Numbered from the stretch's first letter, positions 47,021 to 54,137 are shown. The stretch: DNA of 64,000 bases from Candidatus Moranbacteria bacterium CG10_big_fil_rev_8_21_14_0_10_35_21 (GCA_002773095.1 PFCG01000018.1:25008-89007); one strand, 5' to 3'. Numbers and translations: made by a program. The notes: generated by a model from the sequence alone, not told the origin.

Positions 47021-47151
47021 ACTACTTAAGTTATTCTTATATTTTAATCATAGCGACTAAAATCTAATTTAACAAGGTCTATTTGACAAAACACTAATTT
47101 TATGCTATAATTGAAGATAGTGCCTTCCTCTATTTTTTTTAAATAATATTA

Positions 47152-47200: not shown

Positions 47201-47734
47201 TTATGTCCGTGCACCTACTAGTGCGCGGAAGTCCTGCCGATGGGCACACCTTTTTTTCTTAATCGAACACTTATCCTTCTCTCTGGGTAAATAATCGCTT
47301 CCTACCCCAAAAGCAATAGCCTTAAGCGACAAGGCTCTGTCTAAAGTCGCTACACTTACCTTTCGATCTTCCAAATACTTTTGCGCTTCCCTATGAGCCG
47401 CTCTTATGATTTGGTCATCGACAGTTTCAGACAGTTCTTTTGGATTACCAGTATTTAGACAAAAGCAACATCCTGCTGGAAGTTTTTGTTCACCCTTGAA
47501 ATATTTTTCCAGAAAATTGATAACTTTTTTGGCCGTTCTTTTAACTCCATTTTTTGAGTATTTAGAAATACAATCCAGTTCGTCAATAACTCCTGTTGTA
47601 ATAACAATTATCTTTCTTCTCTTCAGGCCCCTGAGATATTTAGAAAATTTATGTAAAAATACATTCGTATCCCAGAATTCTACTTCCACATTTTTGTAAT
47701 CATATCTTCTGATTTGGCCGTTTGATTTACCCAA
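47201..47734 (-). CDS. PIN-domain protein (putative ribonuclease)
   Basis: Acidic residues in FWDTNVF and IIVITTGVIDELD match the PIN fold pattern. The C-terminal 40 aa are encoded by unusually GC-rich DNA. Confidence 0.45.
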   Translation of the reverse strand: MGKSNGQIRRYDYKNVEVEFWDTNVFLHKFSKYLRGLKRRKIIVITTGVIDELDCISKYSKNGVKRTAKKVINFLEKYFKGEQKLPAGCCFCLNTGNPKELSETVDDQIIRAAHREAQKYLEDRKVSVATLDRALSLKAIAFGVGSDYLPREKDKCSIKKKRCAHRQDFRALVGART

Positions 47735-48383
47735 AATTCTCTCCTTTCTGAATAATTAAAAAAGATGCCTCGGCGAAGACACTTTCAAAAAATTAAGGTA
47801 CTATCCTCCTTTCTTTTTATTTGTATTTTAATTATAGCATAACTTTAAAAATAAAAAAAACACCACATTCGACTATACAAAAATAAAACTTTCGCTCTAC
47901 TCTCTACACGCCAAATGTGGCTTGTCACCCCTCTCCTACTGGCCACACTTGCTTTATAGGAAAAAGGATTTAATTGTTTAAACTGTGGCCTGTTCTTGGA
48001 GCGATTATTGATAACCGTCCACTCTCTAATACAAAGAAAACACACAAATATTGCGGAAACTTTAAAAATGTTCCGGGACTAGGATTTTTACCCCATACCA
48101 ATTTGTTCCCAGACTAGGATTTTTACCCTGTCGGCTGACAGGGCGAACCCCAATAAACAGAACTCCGCCAAAGGCGGACAGGCGCCATCTGCTTTTATAT
48201 TTTGTTGACCACTCGGGTCTAGAACTTTATTTAATCAAGCCGTTGAAGGCTTTCTTGGATACTTTTGAGTATAGGCTCCGGAGGCCTCTAGGTCAAGGTA
48301 AATTCGGGCAAAACAAGACAAATGAGACACAGGACAGCCCATGTCTCATTTTAGCGAATAAGACAGTTCAATGTCTTATTGAG

Positions 48384-49898
48384 TTACCAGCCGCATCCCA
48401 ACCTCGGTGCCGGAGGCCCAGCTATCAAGACTCCCGGCGTTGCATGGCGGTTCTTTTCAATTGTTTTGAGGATCAGTATAGAGAATGAATCTGCTAGATC
48501 GTCATGCTTCTCTTTCCCGAAACCAACCAACTGTTCGATGAGCGCGTCTGCCCCCTGTCTTGGAAAAACAATTTGTCCCGACTGAATAAGGTTTGTTGTT
48601 AGATATAAACGCGACCGCTTGTCTGATCCGTGAGGCTTGAATCCTTCCGCCTTAATGCCCATAGCATCAAGTTGCTGGATAACCGAAGATTGGTATCCGA
48701 CCTCTTCAACATAAATACGGGAAGAAAATCCGCTGTTTACAAATGTTTCGTGAATGGATTTTATGCGATTTACTGTACCATGAAATTTAAGCTTCTCGTT
48801 AACAGGATTAGGTAAGATGTAAATTTTGATGTTTTCTCCTCTCCCATAAATGCAGGCCGAAACCATGGCGGTATAATCATGAGTAGCCCCTTGATAAACA
48901 GCCAAATCAACTGACGTTGCTACATACCTCAAATTTTCTTTCCACGGAGAGCCGTCATAATAAGATAGCATCTCGTGGAAAATCAGTTGATCGTCTTCCG
49001 GAACGATTCGGAGCATATATTCGCGTTGCCAGGCGTTCTCATTGGGGACAGTGAGTTTTAATTTATCTATATCCTCCATGCTTTTGAATTTCTCAGGCCA
49101 AAGAATCTCACCCTCTTCATTGACCAATGGATACTTCCGGTATATTCCGTTAAGTTTGCCATTTTCAATACACTCTTTGAGACGCATGAGCAAAGAGTCT
49201 TCGTGAAGCAAATTTCCAACAACGATAATCTTGGTGTTGTTGTCTCCGGTAGGAATGACCTCGCCAGTAAACCAATCATAAGTTTTATTGCGGCCTTCTC
49301 TTGTTTTTACAGAAGAAAGATCTTCCACATCATCGCAGATTATCAAATCAGGGCGGTAAGATCCATGACGAATACCCCGAATGCTCTGTTCGCTGGAAGC
49401 AACCGTAATTCTGGCATCGTGCTTCGGAATAACAATAGAAGTGGAACCCCATTCATTATTTTTTTCCTCAAAAGGGCCCATTTCTTGTTTGAGAAGATGA
49501 TTATTTTCAAGCTCCCGGCGAATATTGGCCAAGTGGAGTTTGGCCTGAGATTGAGTCTGGCTCAAAATCAAAACGAAATGCTTCTGTGGTTTTCCTACGA
49601 TCGCCCAAAGAGGATATGACAAAGTAACCAGCGTTGATTTAGCTGATCCTCGGAAAGCTTCAATTATCGCCATTCCTACATCATCATTTTCGGTAATCGC
49701 GAGTATATCTTTTTGAAACTCAGCTGTTCCATATTTGATATATGGAGCTAGATATACCGGGAAAAACCATTGATGACTCTGCCTTGTAACTGCGACTCGG
49801 ACACGCTTGTCTTTAACTAACTGTTGAAGAATCTGGCTCTGTGATTTTTTTACTGTCATCGTTGTGTTTCTGAACAGATGCAAGTCGCAGCGCCTCAC
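48384..49898 (-). CDS. terL: Phage terminase large subunit (ATPase plus nuclease)
   Basis: Walker A AFRGSAKSTLV, Walker B PDLIICDDVED, and a C-terminal acidic nuclease region (YVEEVGYQSS...DDLADSF). Confidence 0.75.
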   Translation of the reverse strand: MRRCDLHLFRNTTMTVKKSQSQILQQLVKDKRVRVAVTRQSHQWFFPVYLAPYIKYGTAEFQKDILAITENDDVGMAIIEAFRGSAKSTLVTLSYPLWAIVGKPQKHFVLILSQTQSQAKLHLANIRRELENNHLLKQEMGPFEEKNNEWGSTSIVIPKHDARITVASSEQSIRGIRHGSYRPDLIICDDVEDLSSVKTREGRNKTYDWFTGEVIPTGDNNTKIIVVGNLLHEDSLLMRLKECIENGKLNGIYRKYPLVNEEGEILWPEKFKSMEDIDKLKLTVPNENAWQREYMLRIVPEDDQLIFHEMLSYYDGSPWKENLRYVATSVDLAVYQGATHDYTAMVSACIYGRGENIKIYILPNPVNEKLKFHGTVNRIKSIHETFVNSGFSSRIYVEEVGYQSSVIQQLDAMGIKAEGFKPHGSDKRSRLYLTTNLIQSGQIVFPRQGADALIEQLVGFGKEKHDDLADSFSILILKTIEKNRHATPGVLIAGPPAPRLGCGW

Positions 49899-50274
49899 TA
49901 ATAACCTTTTTCTGTTCAGCTGTTAATTCCTGATTATCACTCCTATCTCTTTCCAAAACTTCAACTTTATTCGTATAGGCTTTATGGCGATTTTGGAGCC
50001 AGAACCGGACTGCTGAAAAGTTATTATTTTTGATAGCAGTAATAAGTTGTGATTCCGATAAATCATTGACCATCAGGACACCATCTGCAATTGCCTCATC
50101 AGCATCACTCACAAATTTTTTATCCTCGTTTCGCCAACGGTAATAGGTCGCCCGGCTTATGCCGGCTTTTTGACAGGCCACCTGGACAATAGGCAGTTTG
50201 GCTAACTGTTCCAATACTGCTTTCTTGTCTTCAGCTATCCGTTTTTTGGTTGTTGTGTTATTTCTCTTGCTCAT
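49813..50274 (-). CDS. terS: Terminase small subunit-like HTH DNA-binding protein
   Basis: HTH VACQKAGISRATYYRWRNE. It lies immediately 5' of terL and overlaps it. Confidence 0.5.
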   Translation of the reverse strand: MSKRNNTTTKKRIAEDKKAVLEQLAKLPIVQVACQKAGISRATYYRWRNEDKKFVSDADEAIADGVLMVNDLSESQLITAIKNNNFSAVRFWLQNRHKAYTNKVEVLERDRSDNQELTAEQKKVISEALRLASVQKHNDDSKKITEPDSSTVS

Positions 50275-51049
50275 CTTTTTGTGTATTAGTTTCTAATCTC
50301 TCGGCCTTCACTCCTGACATTTTTTCGAAACGATCAATAATTGTCTGACAATATTCCGGATCAAGCTCAACCATAAAACAGCTTCGCTTGGTCTGCTCGC
50401 ACGCCAAAAGCGTTTGACCCGATCCGCCGAATCCGTCAAAAACCACATCTCCGATTTTTGAACTATTGAGAATAATTCTGCGCAATAATCCAAGTGGCTT
50501 CATCGTAGGATGAGCTTTGCTTTTACTAGGTCGAGGGAAAATTAAAACGCTTTTATCCTTAGATCGCAAGAAATCGTGCTGACCAAACCAACCGTAGGCA
50601 ATCAGCTCATGTTGCGGTAAATAATCCATTCGACCGATGATGCTGTGGTTTTTGACCCAGATAATAAGCTGAGTGAATTTGAAGCCGGCTTTTTCCATTC
50701 CGATTTTCAGCGCGAATATCATCTTGTCTGAATTGAAAATGTAAACGGAATTTTTGCGCTCAAGAAATGGTTTAATGGCTTCCAGCGAATCAGCGGTGAA
50801 CTGGATATATTCCTCTTCGCTTTGCAGGTGATCATTGGCGATCGGTTTCCGTTTGGTTTTCGAAGAAGTAAAACCCTCCTTTCCTTCTACTACTGCAATT
50901 GCATAGGGCGGATCCTGACACAAAAGTTTAGCTTTTTCTTTTTCAAAGAGTCTGACTATCAGTTTTTTGTCTCGACAGTCTCCGCAGGCCAGGCGATGGT
51001 TTCCTAAGAGAAACACATCGCCAATTTGAATTGAATTTTCTTTAGTCAT
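50258..51049 (-). CDS. DNA methyltransferase (N6-adenine/N4-cytosine, beta class)
   Basis: Motif IV LCQDPPYAI comes before motif I VVFDGFGGSGQTLLACEQTKRSCFMVELDPEY. Confidence 0.8.
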   Translation of the reverse strand: MTKENSIQIGDVFLLGNHRLACGDCRDKKLIVRLFEKEKAKLLCQDPPYAIAVVEGKEGFTSSKTKRKPIANDHLQSEEEYIQFTADSLEAIKPFLERKNSVYIFNSDKMIFALKIGMEKAGFKFTQLIIWVKNHSIIGRMDYLPQHELIAYGWFGQHDFLRSKDKSVLIFPRPSKSKAHPTMKPLGLLRRIILNSSKIGDVVFDGFGGSGQTLLACEQTKRSCFMVELDPEYCQTIIDRFEKMSGVKAERLETNTQKDEQEK

Positions 51050-52334
51050 TATTTTTTATATTACTGATTAGTTTCGCGCTCTTTCCACTTAAACTCTCAT
51101 ACCTTTTGATAATCACCTCGCAAAAAACCGGGTCCAGTTCGGCCATAAAACAGCGTCTTTTCATCTGCTCGCAGGCGATGAGGACAGACCCCGATCCGCC
51201 GAACAAATCCAAAACGGTATCGCCTGGCTTGGTGCAGCGGCGGAGTGGCTTTTCACTTAATGTGACGGGTTTTTCGGTGGGATGGGTGTAGCTGGCGGTC
51301 GGCAATCTTTTGACTAACCAAATATCAATAATATCCAAAATGTCCTCCGACAATCTGTTGCCGCTCGTCGTTTCTTTGTTGAGAATCTCATTAAGATTGG
51401 TAACTCGCGAAGAAATGTAAGGTTTTCCGCGCGTAGCATAGACACAAGGTTCATATGCCTTATTAAACGCTATTTGCGGAGTGACATTTTGGTTATTTTT
51501 AATCCACAAGCAGACTCGCTTTGAATCCAGCCCGAGTTCGGCGTAAATACTTTGGAGCGTGCCAATGTATCGCTGATCGCACCAATAAAAAACATGGCAA
51601 TCATTTTCAGAGACCGCCAGCGCGTTTTCCATAGTGGCTTTCAAAAAGTTTCGGTATTCTGTTTCGGTTTTCTTGTCATTGGCCGTTCCTCCGTATTTTC
51701 CATTTTTTCCAAGTCCGGAATCGTAATCATATCCAATATTGTATACTGGATCGCAGGCGATCATATCAATCTTTTCTTTTCCGACAAGTTTTTTAACTGT
51801 TGCTGGATCGGTGGAGTCCCCGCAAATTAAGTGATGACTTCCAAGTTCGTAGAGATCGCCAAGTTTTACTTTTGGTTCCTTGATTTCAGCAACTGCTTTT
51901 TCAAGATCAAAATCATCTTGTTCTGTCTCTAAATTATCATCCCATATATTAGACAGATCACCGTCATCGAAGCCCACATTCAACAGCAAATCCAGATCGA
52001 ACTCTTTCAAAAGTTCATAGTCCCATTCGCCAGTATTGCGATTTAAGCGCAAATTGAGTTCCTTCTCCTTTTCTATGTTCGGTATGTTTACATAGACTAC
52101 CGGAACCTCCTTGAGTTTGAGTTTTCTGGCTGTAGCCAAACGGAAATTACCGCCGATCACGATATTTATTCTTTTGGGCGCACTATTAACGATAATTGGA
52201 TCGACCATCCCATACTCGTTTACGCTTTCCTCTAGATGTTGTGCGGCCGCTTCATCCCACTTCCGGGGATTGTATTCGGGCGCTTTTAAAGAATCGACTT
52301 TGACGAAAGTGATTCTTAATTTTTCCTTCTCCAT
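51042..52334 (-). CDS. ParB-like nuclease domain fused to a DNA methyltransferase
   Basis: N-terminal ParB/Srx fold (YNPRKWDEAAAQHLEESVNEYGMVDPIIVN). Then IACDPVYNIGYDY (DPPY-like) and VLDLFGGSGSVLIACEQMKRRCFMAELDPVFCEV. Confidence 0.8.
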   Translation of the reverse strand: MEKEKLRITFVKVDSLKAPEYNPRKWDEAAAQHLEESVNEYGMVDPIIVNSAPKRINIVIGGNFRLATARKLKLKEVPVVYVNIPNIEKEKELNLRLNRNTGEWDYELLKEFDLDLLLNVGFDDGDLSNIWDDNLETEQDDFDLEKAVAEIKEPKVKLGDLYELGSHHLICGDSTDPATVKKLVGKEKIDMIACDPVYNIGYDYDSGLGKNGKYGGTANDKKTETEYRNFLKATMENALAVSENDCHVFYWCDQRYIGTLQSIYAELGLDSKRVCLWIKNNQNVTPQIAFNKAYEPCVYATRGKPYISSRVTNLNEILNKETTSGNRLSEDILDIIDIWLVKRLPTASYTHPTEKPVTLSEKPLRRCTKPGDTVLDLFGGSGSVLIACEQMKRRCFMAELDPVFCEVIIKRYESLSGKSAKLISNIKNND

Positions 52335-52696
52335 TATTTTGGTCGGAGAAAAGAACTAAAGATTTTGAATTTCAGATTAAAGTAAAGAAGCTGTTTTATT
52401 CCCCAACAAAACAAAAAAGATCCCGCAGTAACCATTTAATCTTAAGCTCTTTCTCTCGAAAGATTAAAACTTAAGCTCTTGCCTTGTTATGGTTATTATA
52501 TGGATCTAATATGATGTAAATTTGATATTCTATTTTCTAATTTTTTCTGATATTTTTTCTATACCATTATTATGCTCTTTTTTAAGAATATGTCAAACTC
52601 GAGATTTTATGGGGCTTTCAAGGGCTTTTCAGGGGCTTAAGTTATCAACTGTTTGAGCCTGGACTAGTTTTGGGGGTTGCGTCATTCCTTAGATAT

Positions 52697-54059
52697 ATGG
52701 ATAACACAACAAACCAACAACTAAAAGAAACCGGCCAAGGCGTCCAAGTAGTTGCGGAACCGGCCAAAATTAAATACTGCTTATATGCCCGGAAAAGCAC
52801 AGAGTCTGAAGAACGGCAGGTGCTTTCCATAGACTCACAAATCAAAGAAATGCTTCAGATTGCCGAGCGGGATGGGCTGGATATCGTGGAAATGCGGCGC
52901 GAAAGTCATTCAGCCAAAAACTCCAACGAGCGTCCAGTCTTCAATAGTATTATCAAAGACATTCAAGGCGGAAAGTTCAATGGCATTATGACTTGGGCGC
53001 CGGATCGGTTGAGTCGCAATGCTGGCGACCTCGGAGCGCTGGTTGATCTCATGGATCAAAAACTGTTGATTAAAATCCGAACCTTCGGCCAACAATTCAC
53101 CAATTCACCCAATGAAAAATTTCTGCTGATGATTTTAGGATCGCAAGCCAAACTGGAAAATGACAACCGAAGCGTCAATGTGAAGCGTGGTCTTCGGACA
53201 AGAGTAGAAATGGGACTTTGGCCGGGAGTAGCGCCGACCGGATATCTTAATGAAAAAATGACGGATCGCAAATGCCAAGTGATTGTTGATCCAGATCCGC
53301 GCGCCAATCATTCGTCAGGTGTTTGAAAAAGTCGCCTACGAACAATGGAGCGGACGAAAGTTATATCACTGGCTAAAATTCGAAATCCACTTCACGACCA
53401 GATATGGAAAACCGTTGGCGCTGAGCAATATCTATCGAATGTTGCAAAGACCATTCTATCATGGCGTGTATGAATATCCGGAAGAAAGCGGACACTGGTA
53501 TACCGGGAAACATAAACCGATCATTACCAAAGAATTATTTGACAAAGTTCAGGAACAATTGAATCGCGATCAGATCGTGCGGGAAAATAGAGAATTCGCT
53601 TTCACTAAGATGATTACTTGTGGACTATGCGGATCAGGCGTGACCGCTCAGGAAAAATACAAGAAACAGAAAAATGGTAATGTCCACCGCTACATTTATT
53701 ATGGATGCACCTGGGCCAAGGATCTGAATTGCAAATGCGGATATCTTCGCGAGGACGCGCTGATTGAAAGTCTAATAAATCTGATTGATAAAATCGATCT
53801 AAATGAATTGGGGCTGAAAAATAAGTTTCATGATGAAGTGATGAGATATAACCGGTTTCAAAGAAATGTACTGAAAAGACCGGGCAATGAAAAATCGGAA
53901 AGCGATATTGATCTCAGAGTCTACGCCAAATATATTCTCAAGGAAGGAAGCATGGTGGAAAAGCGCGAACTGCTATCGTGCCTGCGAAGCCGATTGATAT
54001 TCAAGGATAAGGCACTAACACTGGAAAAAGCTGAAAATATCGACTCGAGGACTGCTTAA
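52697..54059 (+). pseudogene. Large serine recombinase (phage integrase type) split by a frameshift at about 53283..53326
   Basis: The catalytic domain has YARKSTESEERQ (the Ser nucleophile) and DRLSRNAGDL. The downstream frame carries the recombinase domain and Zn ribbon (TCGLCGSGVTAQEKY...YYGCTWAKDLNCKCG). The two ORFs are in different frames and overlap by 44 nt. Confidence 0.7.
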
Positions 54060-54137
54060 TGGTATTATAAGGATATAGAAAATAATCCAAATTAAATAAA
54101 CTTAGACATTCTGATTAATTTTTTTTAGCATTAGTTT

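Follow-up and report, generated by a model that had tools for sequence, protein, structure and literature searches.

The Staphylococcus aureus pathogenicity islands (SaPIs) redirect phage packaging with a terminase small subunit (TerS) of their own, and the orphan methyltransferases (MTases) borne by phages protect packaged DNA. To our knowledge, the capsid-forming phage-inducible chromosomal islands (cf-PICIs) are the only described satellites known to encode both TerS and the large terminase subunit (TerL). Integration by a large serine recombinase (LSR) is found in the phage-inducible chromosomal island-like elements (PLEs) of Vibrio cholerae (PMC9618062), and some virion-encapsidated integrative mobile elements (VEIMEs) use serine recombinases and carry TerS, TerL being treated there as a helper-phage function (PMC9618062). 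Here, we analysed a stretch of 64,000 nucleotides from Candidatus Moranbacteria bacterium CG10_big_fil_rev_8_21_14_0_10_35_21 (PFCG01000018.1:25008-89007; hereafter the window, with positions counted from its first letter), in which an island encodes TerS, TerL, two MTases and an LSR. We are confident that this island is a copy from a family of small integrative elements that is widespread, chiefly in genomes with the label Patescibacteria (Candidate Phyla Radiation, CPR). The core of the family is a tight operon of a ParB-MTase fusion, an optional second MTase, TerS and TerL. It is accompanied by the LSR, usually with a LOOT RNA next to it, by variable cargo and, in some members, by a LexA/CI-type repressor.

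The region had been described in the initial annotation as GC-richer than its surroundings, and both 1-kb and 100-bp windows bear this out. Between 48001 and 54000 the GC content of 1-kb windows is 0.396-0.437, against 0.336-0.372 on the left (44-48 kb) and 0.351-0.382 on the right (54-57 kb). At the left edge, the step in 100-bp windows falls near 47,850-47,900; the island itself was thus correctly seen, but its start, given as 47,760, was set about 100 bp too far to the left. The gene set proposed for it (terS-terL, a beta-class MTase, a ParB-MTase fusion and a serine recombinase) was recovered as the same open reading frames (ORFs) and families, with the recombinase gene split. As also proposed, the island and its flanks gave no match to families of capsid, tail or lysis genes, and housekeeping and envelope genes make up the remainder of the window. 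With its structural genes absent, the locus lacks the capsid and tail cluster of a gene transfer agent; with a composition unlike that of its host and a different location in relatives, it is a genomic island. The element proper, that is the part common to relatives, extends from 48204 to 54037.

The recurrence of this gene set is what identifies the family. Databases contain more than 3,600 relatives of TerL. Identity is 52-88% for the best 120, and some come from contigs of more than 1 Mb; the homologues with a named source come from Moranbacteria and other Patescibacteria. When one genome per species was scanned, at least 580 species-representative genomes, mostly labelled Patescibacteria, had a TerL relative. 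Using tblastn with the window proteins, we compared 82 loci, namely 80 kept from this species scan plus L007 and L008 (L-numbers designate the related loci and contigs compared with the window). TerS is present in all 82, always directly upstream of TerL, while the ParB-MTase is found in 74 and the second MTase in 34. In 55 loci the LSR gene shares the strand of the operon and lies downstream, either within 200 bp of TerL (28 loci) or after 0.9-9.4 kb of cargo (27 loci). It is upstream and divergent in five, which is the arrangement of the window and its clade, and most of the remaining loci are on truncated contigs. L007 and L008 have the same five genes in the same arrangement as the window. 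The search of phage collections with TerL that had been recommended gave a match to PHROG 38 (2.7e-74) and, in IMG/VR, 49 relatives, 47 of which, down to 40% identity, have the same module, several of them with a second TerL in tandem.

A true phage was met only in L145 and L146, whose TerL is 37-38% identical to that of the window. There, a small unannotated ORF precedes TerL, which is followed by a portal/MuF fusion, a protease, the major capsid protein (MCP), an adaptor and tail genes. No relative of these morphogenesis genes was found within 10 kb of any module locus, and a search of the window and of about 130 related loci gave none for the portal, protease, MCP and adaptor. Likewise, a replication module (primase/helicase, or Rep and origin) was found neither in the window nor as a recurrent family in the 82 loci. 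Clustering of the 1,588 ORFs from the loci gave no further family present in more than 25 of the 82, the next commonest being a divergent LexA/CI-type S24 repressor (25 loci), a Sie-like tRNA_anti-like protein (16) and a Cro-like helix-turn-helix (HTH) protein (14). Just upstream of the ParB-MTase gene are assorted proteins of 130-290 aa without assigned family. The 81 proteins encoded between TerL and the LSR include superinfection-exclusion proteins, Ltp lipoproteins, restriction-modification (R-M) enzymes, a reverse transcriptase, a KAP NTPase, regulators and transporters. A second TerL is also among them, and no capsid or tail family is among the most frequent families listed for this gap.

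In L007 and L008 the cargo after TerL contains an SNF2 helicase and type IIG R-M in one and type I R-M in the other. These slots (L007:11513-20950 and L008:11587-19692) also hold an AAA/DUF4435 gene next to the type I R-M genes and a cytosine MTase next to SNF2 and type IIG R-M. The slot after TerL of L149 (10762-13169), which like these belongs to the window's clade, is occupied by a CBASS CD-NTase and Cap15. A small excisionase-like HTH_17 gene directly follows TerL in L007, L010 and L012, and in eight loci (L034, L079, L107, L113, L116, L117, L121 and L144) TerL is doubled, and two diverged genes in tandem, with about 50% identity to the TerL of the window, stand between TerS and the recombinase.

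In the window, four genes on the minus strand overlap each other by 8-47 nt and therefore form a tight operon. The first (51042-52334, -) encodes the fusion of a ParB_N domain (1.3e-9) to an MTase (PF01555, 7.5e-28) and the second (50258-51049, -) an N6A/N4C DNA MTase (PF01555, N6_N4_Mtase, 5.5e-30). The latter had been assigned to the beta class, and rightly so: motif IV precedes the FxGxG motif I in both proteins (QDPPY then DGFGGSG in the MTase, CDPVY then DLFGGSG in the ParB fusion), and the closest solved structures are M.RsrI, CcrM, DpnA and M.PvuII. The third gene (49813-50274, -) encodes a TerS-like HTH protein of 153 aa that matches HTH_Tnp_1_2 (6.5e-8) and PHROG terS families (1e-7 to 4e-4), and its 3′ end overlaps the start of TerL by 47 nt; by these matches and its position, it is the probable terminase small subunit. 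The last gene (48384-49859, -) encodes an intact TerL, also matched by Terminase_6C (6e-6), with both an ASCE ATPase and an RNaseH-like nuclease. Indeed, 31 homologues show no change at the lysine of Walker A, the acidic residues of Walker B or the aspartates of the nuclease (K74/S75/T76, D176/D177/E179, D318, D413 and D453/D454 are invariant), and sequence matches to solved TerL structures are weak. The dN/dS ratios against L147 (83% identical) are 0.06 for the ParB-MTase, 0.05 for the MTase, 0.13 for TerS and 0.09 for TerL, and indicate that all four genes are under purifying selection. In PADLOC, only generic MTase models matched the second MTase. TerL, TerS and the LSR parts matched no nuclease or defence model, save for a marginal TerS-DrmC hit (E = 7e-4); no restriction partner was found, PADLOC matching the MTases only, and by this measure the locus is not an R-M system.

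Several observations show that these elements move. In many loci, tRNA genes, often tRNA-Ser, lie just past the 3′ end of the LSR gene. L042 and L052 have in common a 6.25-kb element, 92% identical, that runs from the ParB-MTase to the LSR and LOOT and ends at the 3′ end of a tRNA-Ser gene, with different flanks and different tRNA-Ser anticodons. Two copies were found in one metagenome-assembled genome (MAG; L072 and L083) and two on one IMG/VR contig. Furthermore, when metagenomes were scanned with a 29-mer taken from the operon's leader, L165 was recovered. Its identity to the window is 100% between 52377 and 52932 and about 92% thence to 54037. This locus adjoins dnaX and tRNA-Gln genes, and its LSR gene is followed by the LOOT RNA and by Zn-ribbon and RadC genes. 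A near-identical segment in such another context, in another organism, is direct evidence of recent transfer between genomes and vindicates the early view of the region as foreign and mobile. That view was to be given up if composition proved uniform or synteny conserved; in fact composition differs, and it is the module that is conserved and not its location. Within the population of the window, the same island, 99.8-100% identical, was found in several independent assemblies, including the NCBI MAG GCA_002790575.1. All contigs that encode the exact PIN-domain or the exact Lnb_N neighbour carry the island, and no empty site was found among them.

The copy in the window has lost its integrase. 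The N-terminal part of the LSR (Resolvase, PF00239, 3.5e-22) is encoded at 52697-53326 (+), with the frame lost at 53297, and the C-terminal part (Recombinase and Zn-ribbon, PF07508 and PF13408, Zn_ribbon_recom) at 53298-54059 (+) in the +1 frame. The large serine recombinase first proposed here therefore has its three domains but not its intactness, an extra C at 53297 splitting the ORF. In direct alignment with L165, a 95% identical relative, this C is the sole indel in the gene, and the distances between the 90 substitutions are mostly multiples of three, so that the gene was under selection until recently. The lesion is identical in all assemblies that cover the site (at least 10), and L007 and L008 have intact homologues of 449-451 aa. 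By these alignments, the LSR gene of the window is a pseudogene with a fixed +1 frameshift. Programmed frameshifting was also considered and is unlikely, since the homologues do without it and the close relative L165 bears a different lesion. The LSR gene of L165 (7548-8918, -) is in the correct frame but contains a TGA nonsense codon, and the two close copies have thus lost their integrase independently.

The same end of the element is also truncated. Homology to L165 stops at 54037, eight bases short of the stop codon of L165, and the last 7 codons and the stop of the ORF at 53298-54059 are not element sequence. Beyond this breakpoint L165 continues into the LOOT RNA and cargo, the window into AT-rich DNA and the Lnb_N gene. 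The element of the window has therefore lost its LSR-side end, with LOOT, cargo and the outer att site. It is a degenerate copy that carries no cargo and is very probably immobile; its four-gene operon is intact. "Decayed", as the island had been called, is thus apt for this copy, with its dead integrase and truncated end, but not for the element family. A related copy, in L163/L166, has a frameshifted ParB-MTase and TerL and no LSR. From the inactivations in L165 and L163/L166, copies seem to decay quickly after insertion.

LOOT (RF03000) is an Rfam motif to which no function is assigned. Many relatives, those of the window's clade among them, have it on the strand of the LSR gene, about 40-70 nt past its stop codon; elsewhere, in some loci, its place is upstream of the recombinase and on the opposite strand. 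It scores 56-81 bits in the relatives (L042:12916-13054; L061:12901-13027; L072:12908-13036; L083:12914-13041; L086:8006-8122; L089:12967-13093; L162:10987-11117; L165:7361-7495, -), and nhmmer hits were also obtained in L008, L010, L012, L013 and others. The covariance model has no match in the window at the gathering score, because the element is truncated at 54037. A description of the genomic setting of LOOT was not found in the literature searched, and the main text of Weinberg 2017 does not discuss this RNA. As a side observation, a group I intron match (78.7 bits) lies at L072:14523-14763 (-), about 1.5 kb beyond the element.

Upstream of the operon, the promoter-like sequence TTGACA-16-CATAAT (52596-52569, -; 11 of 12 consensus matches) could drive transcription from the ParB-MTase to TerL, and a TTGACA-type site is found at the equivalent place in L007, L008, L011 and L013. 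Between it and the ParB-MTase gene, a leader contains a hairpin of nested stems (AGAUCC...GGGAUC) followed by a U-run (52507-52413, -), as well as AT-rich AGAAAA repeats. The hairpin is kept in 7 relatives, 3 of its 27 predicted pairs showing compensatory changes, and it resembles an intrinsic-terminator-like attenuator. The leader region (52335-52596) is identical to L147 at 180 of 182 nt and to L165 at 320 of 320, while the adjacent genes differ by 8-25%. Such conservation could reflect a strong constraint (an attenuator, a pac site or an origin) or a recombination hot spot. The tract identical to L165 extends into the coding region of the recombinase, to 52932, which favours at least some recombination. 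The leader matches no known RNA in Rfam and its fold z-score is unremarkable, its support coming from conservation and a few compensatory pairs only.

At the opposite end, a conserved block (48204-48352) starts where homology to L163/L166 starts, at 48204; it is 88.5% identical to L163/L166 over 48204-48377 and identical to L147 at 107 of 115 positions. This block contains GTTGACCACTCGGGTCTAGAAC (48204-48225), an outward promoter-like site, TTGACC-17-TATACT, found by promoter scan (48296-48268, -), and AGACAAATGAGACA with the inverted TGTCTCATTTT (48316-48351), a terminator hairpin after TerL. A 14-mer of the block was met, with at most 1 mismatch, in 18 further loci, in each case upstream of the module and without a change of strand; by our estimate, chance would give about 0.7 hits in 2.1 Mb. 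The outer part of the block, ACTCGGGTCTAGAAC, is similar to motifs found at the two ends of other members of the family, and loosely so to the 25-nt repeats described below and to CCTGGACTAG, upstream of the recombinase gene. By this resemblance, the ACTCGGGTCTAGAAC-like motifs may be recombinase sites. Just upstream of the recombinase start, the motif GTTATCAAC..CCTGGACTAG..GCGTCATTCC (52640-52696, +), kept in L007, L008, L011 and L013, is a candidate regulatory or recombination site.

How might such an element live? With the reservations set out below, we propose tentatively, with a little less than even confidence, that the members of the family behave like phage satellites. They would integrate and excise by means of the LSR, often beside tRNA genes. 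A constitutive promoter would feed the terminator-like leader, and in the late phase of a helper phage, transcription would read through into the operon, a late antiterminator of the helper overriding the leader by analogy with lambda PR′-tR′; in members with the S24 repressor, the operon would instead be induced by the SOS response. The two MTases would modify the DNA of the element and so protect it from restriction in the next host, while its TerS-TerL would recognise and cut this DNA and pump it into procapsids made by the helper. The element would then spread in borrowed virions, and its defence or exclusion cargo would benefit the host. The copy of the window could not excise; if its operon were expressed, it could only be packaged in situ, in a manner akin to lateral transduction, or interfere with phage packaging. 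Family identity and satellite mechanism together make the best overall explanation, and one that we judge to have an even chance of being correct. In more general terms, it is plausible, though short of an even prospect, that these elements form a phylum-wide class in Patescibacteria, so far undescribed and without capsid or replication genes, with a complete terminase holoenzyme, orphan MTases, an LSR and the orphan LOOT RNA, acting as a new procapsid-stealing satellite or as a capsid-gene-free terminase device for DNA transfer or against phages.

Several points weigh against this explanation. No helper phage was identified and no encapsidated form was seen. The circular excision products that had been suggested as a check were sought among the short related contigs; no circular or excised form was found, and none of these contigs has terminal overlaps. 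The family is without a recognisable replication module, and terminases normally act on concatemers. TerL is at least 50% identical across many CPR classes, which is odd if the helpers are diverse, since a terminase must dock on a specific portal. The copies decay, as the dead LSR genes of the window and L165 and the frameshifted ParB-MTase and TerL genes of L163/L166 illustrate, and the intactness of the operon in the window may be a sign of youth and not of maintenance. As for the leader, its very high identity may have arisen through recent recombination and not through a function. Finally, 25 of the 80 genome loci are labelled non-CPR (Gammaproteobacteria, Bdellovibrionales, Bacillota), nearly all in one MAG series, these labels being unconfirmed.

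Of the three candidates put forward in the initial annotation, a satellite-like element fits best, by inference, and a stand-alone module of packaging and modification has been kept as a rival. In the latter form the operon would be a defence or domesticated module that serves the cell, or that serves the element as an immunity cassette, in which TerS-TerL cuts or mis-packages phage DNA, or which acts like an R-M system with TerL as the restriction arm, the MTases marking self. The presence of two MTases and no restriction enzyme agrees with this idea, as do the union of a translocase and a nuclease in TerL, the association of the module with other defence cargo, and the operon of the window, which is intact despite a dead integrase and a truncated end. 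But other copies (L163/L166) lose the operon too, TerL and TerS match no PADLOC defence family, and the order MTase, TerS, TerL is that of the start of an ordinary phage late operon; the closest phage TerL, that of L145/L146, also has its small ORF upstream and its portal, protease and MCP downstream. On balance we consider a defence role unlikely. A further idea is that the terminase works independently of capsids, the DNA being processed or exported through vesicles, competence or pilus machinery or the epibiont-host interface, or that a chromosomal pac site drives lateral transduction. It would account for a family with no known helper or replication gene, for a TerL so unusually uniform across CPR lineages and for the outward promoter-like site in the end block. 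Yet no export machine adjoins the module in our data, and we know of no terminase that works without a portal-containing procapsid, as in the packaging of Caudoviricetes; this idea seems improbable to us.

The third candidate was a decayed prophage. An ordinary one is not supported, because the minimal set recurs intact in hundreds of genomes and varied contexts, which random decay of complete phages would not give. Put more narrowly, the island could be the one-off remnant of a complete temperate phage whose early, structural and lysis genes were deleted in this lineage, and the genes are indeed phage-derived, in a copy with deletions and a frameshift. However, the gene set is met again, without structural genes, its ORFs intact and its dN/dS low, in at least 580 genomes and on 47 contigs of IMG/VR, and close relatives with cargo are also devoid of structural genes, so that we regard this as very improbable. 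That the island is an ancient, fixed and non-mobile chromosomal locus might be thought because every assembly sampled from this population has it at one and the same site and with an identical frameshift, but the composition differs from that of the host, the relatives lie in unrelated contexts and a near-identical segment is present in another genome; of all the alternatives, we find this one the hardest to credit.

The left margin of the island deserves separate mention. Between the GC step and the element proper lies a GC-rich non-coding stretch without assigned strand (47880-48203; GC 0.41-0.50), which is inside the compositional island and outside the DNA common to relatives. It is possibly a remnant of cargo or of an att site; blastx and blastn against cargo proteins and a phage collection found no protein or DNA similarity. 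No phage remnant was detected in the edge at 47735-48400 by blastx against the ORFs of the related genome loci L007-L089. Rfam, at permissive thresholds, gave no credible match on the non-coding edges (47700-48450 and 52300-52720), and the window contains no tRNA genes.

This stretch holds the imperfect direct repeats noticed at first, which are real, with two 25-nt copies (TGTTCCGGGACTAGGATTTTTACCC at 48069-48093, + and its counterpart at 48104-48128, +) identical at 23 of 25 positions, the 2 mismatches apart, but lie outside the part shared with relatives (48204-54037). They were not found in any related locus, allowing up to 6 mismatches, nor in IMG/VR. The two small GC hairpins reported with them were also confirmed, one at 48126-48143, which overlaps the 3′ end of the second repeat, and the other, TCCGCC-AAA-GGCGGA, at 48164-48178, which is terminator-like on the minus strand. 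The segment 48040-48262 (-), which lies 3′ of the outward promoter-like site and includes the hairpins and the first 25-nt repeat, has a predicted fold more stable than that of shuffled sequences (z = -2.5) and no Rfam match; it may be a small transcript. In contrast, the recurrence claimed for a GGACTAG core is not above chance, with 3 occurrences in the window for 2.0 expected and 36 of 100 shuffles doing as well. The 10-mer CCNGGACTAG is mildly enriched at up to 1 mismatch (7 occurrences for 3.2 expected, reached in 5 of 100 shuffles), which is weak evidence by itself. Large serine recombinases leave almost no direct repeat, and the complete att duplication that was to be sought at the other boundary is therefore not to be expected; it was not found, as no direct repeat longer than 13 nt links the two ends, either in the window or in 13 relatives whose ends are defined.

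Contig ends shared by independent assemblies were noted at 52669 (L003 and L005), at 48272 (L147 and L148, from separate samples) and at 47076 (L002 and L006). Of these points, 52669 and 48272 lie within non-coding motifs that are conserved in the element, and such coincidence suggests junctions or population variants. On the host side, the PIN-domain gene (47201-47734, -) adjoining the island has a weak similarity to PhoH-like phage proteins. It is preceded by an extended -10 promoter-like site, TGCTATAAT, near 47838, with a counterpart in the opposite orientation, on the plus strand, near 47103 in the Obg-PIN intergenic region.

Taken alone, the window is a modest case, that of a decaying, immobilised copy. 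The family is of wider interest, as the phages and mobile elements of Patescibacteria are little known and their hosts are ultra-small, mostly uncultured epibionts. A 6-kb element present in hundreds of genomes offers a handle for finding these phages, through portals that co-occur with its TerL. It also gives the orphan LOOT RNA a genomic setting and a testable role, marks a cargo slot in which Patescibacteria collect defence systems, and could equip the few genetically tractable Saccharibacteria with tools that are ready for use: a packaging signal, and serine integrases together with their sites.

In conclusion, the family can be set beside the satellites and phages that it most resembles. 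The PICIs and SaPIs, too, are small islands that integrate, bear their integrase at one end, do without structural and lysis genes, and carry accessory or defence cargo and a TerS of their own; the divergence of a repressor gene from the operon in some family members recalls the PICI regulatory module. Here too an integrase gene lies at one end and structural and lysis genes are missing; but the integrase is of the serine type and not a tyrosine integrase, no replication module of its own was found, whereas PICIs and SaPIs have one, and a TerS-TerL holoenzyme stands where they are not known to have a TerL. Moreover, the family has no primase or rep-ori and no genes for capsid-size remodelling, and it has a ParB-MTase and an MTase, in a core of about 6 kb and in patescibacterial hosts. 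The cf-PICIs also encode portal, protease, MCP and connectors and borrow tails only, whereas TerS and TerL are all that was found of such a set here or in relatives. The PLEs, at about 18 kb, replicate themselves and are not known to encode a terminase. Comparable in their minimal build are the PICMIs of marine vibrios and the VEIMEs, with about 6 kb, no replication module and full dependence on a helper; these differ in their other gene content and in that no TerL gene is reported for them, a comparison made by description only. The late operon of temperate Caudoviricetes has homologous genes, in the MTase-TerS-TerL order in phages of Firmicutes, but runs on to the portal and beyond, while the operon of the family stops after TerL and gives way to cargo or the LSR. 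We found no description of this element family or module in Patescibacteria in the literature searched, which is not in itself proof of novelty. In our view the family most likely consists of phage hitch-hikers of a type not yet described and, if so, a satellite that brings a whole terminase and nothing else would represent a new strategy of hijacking.

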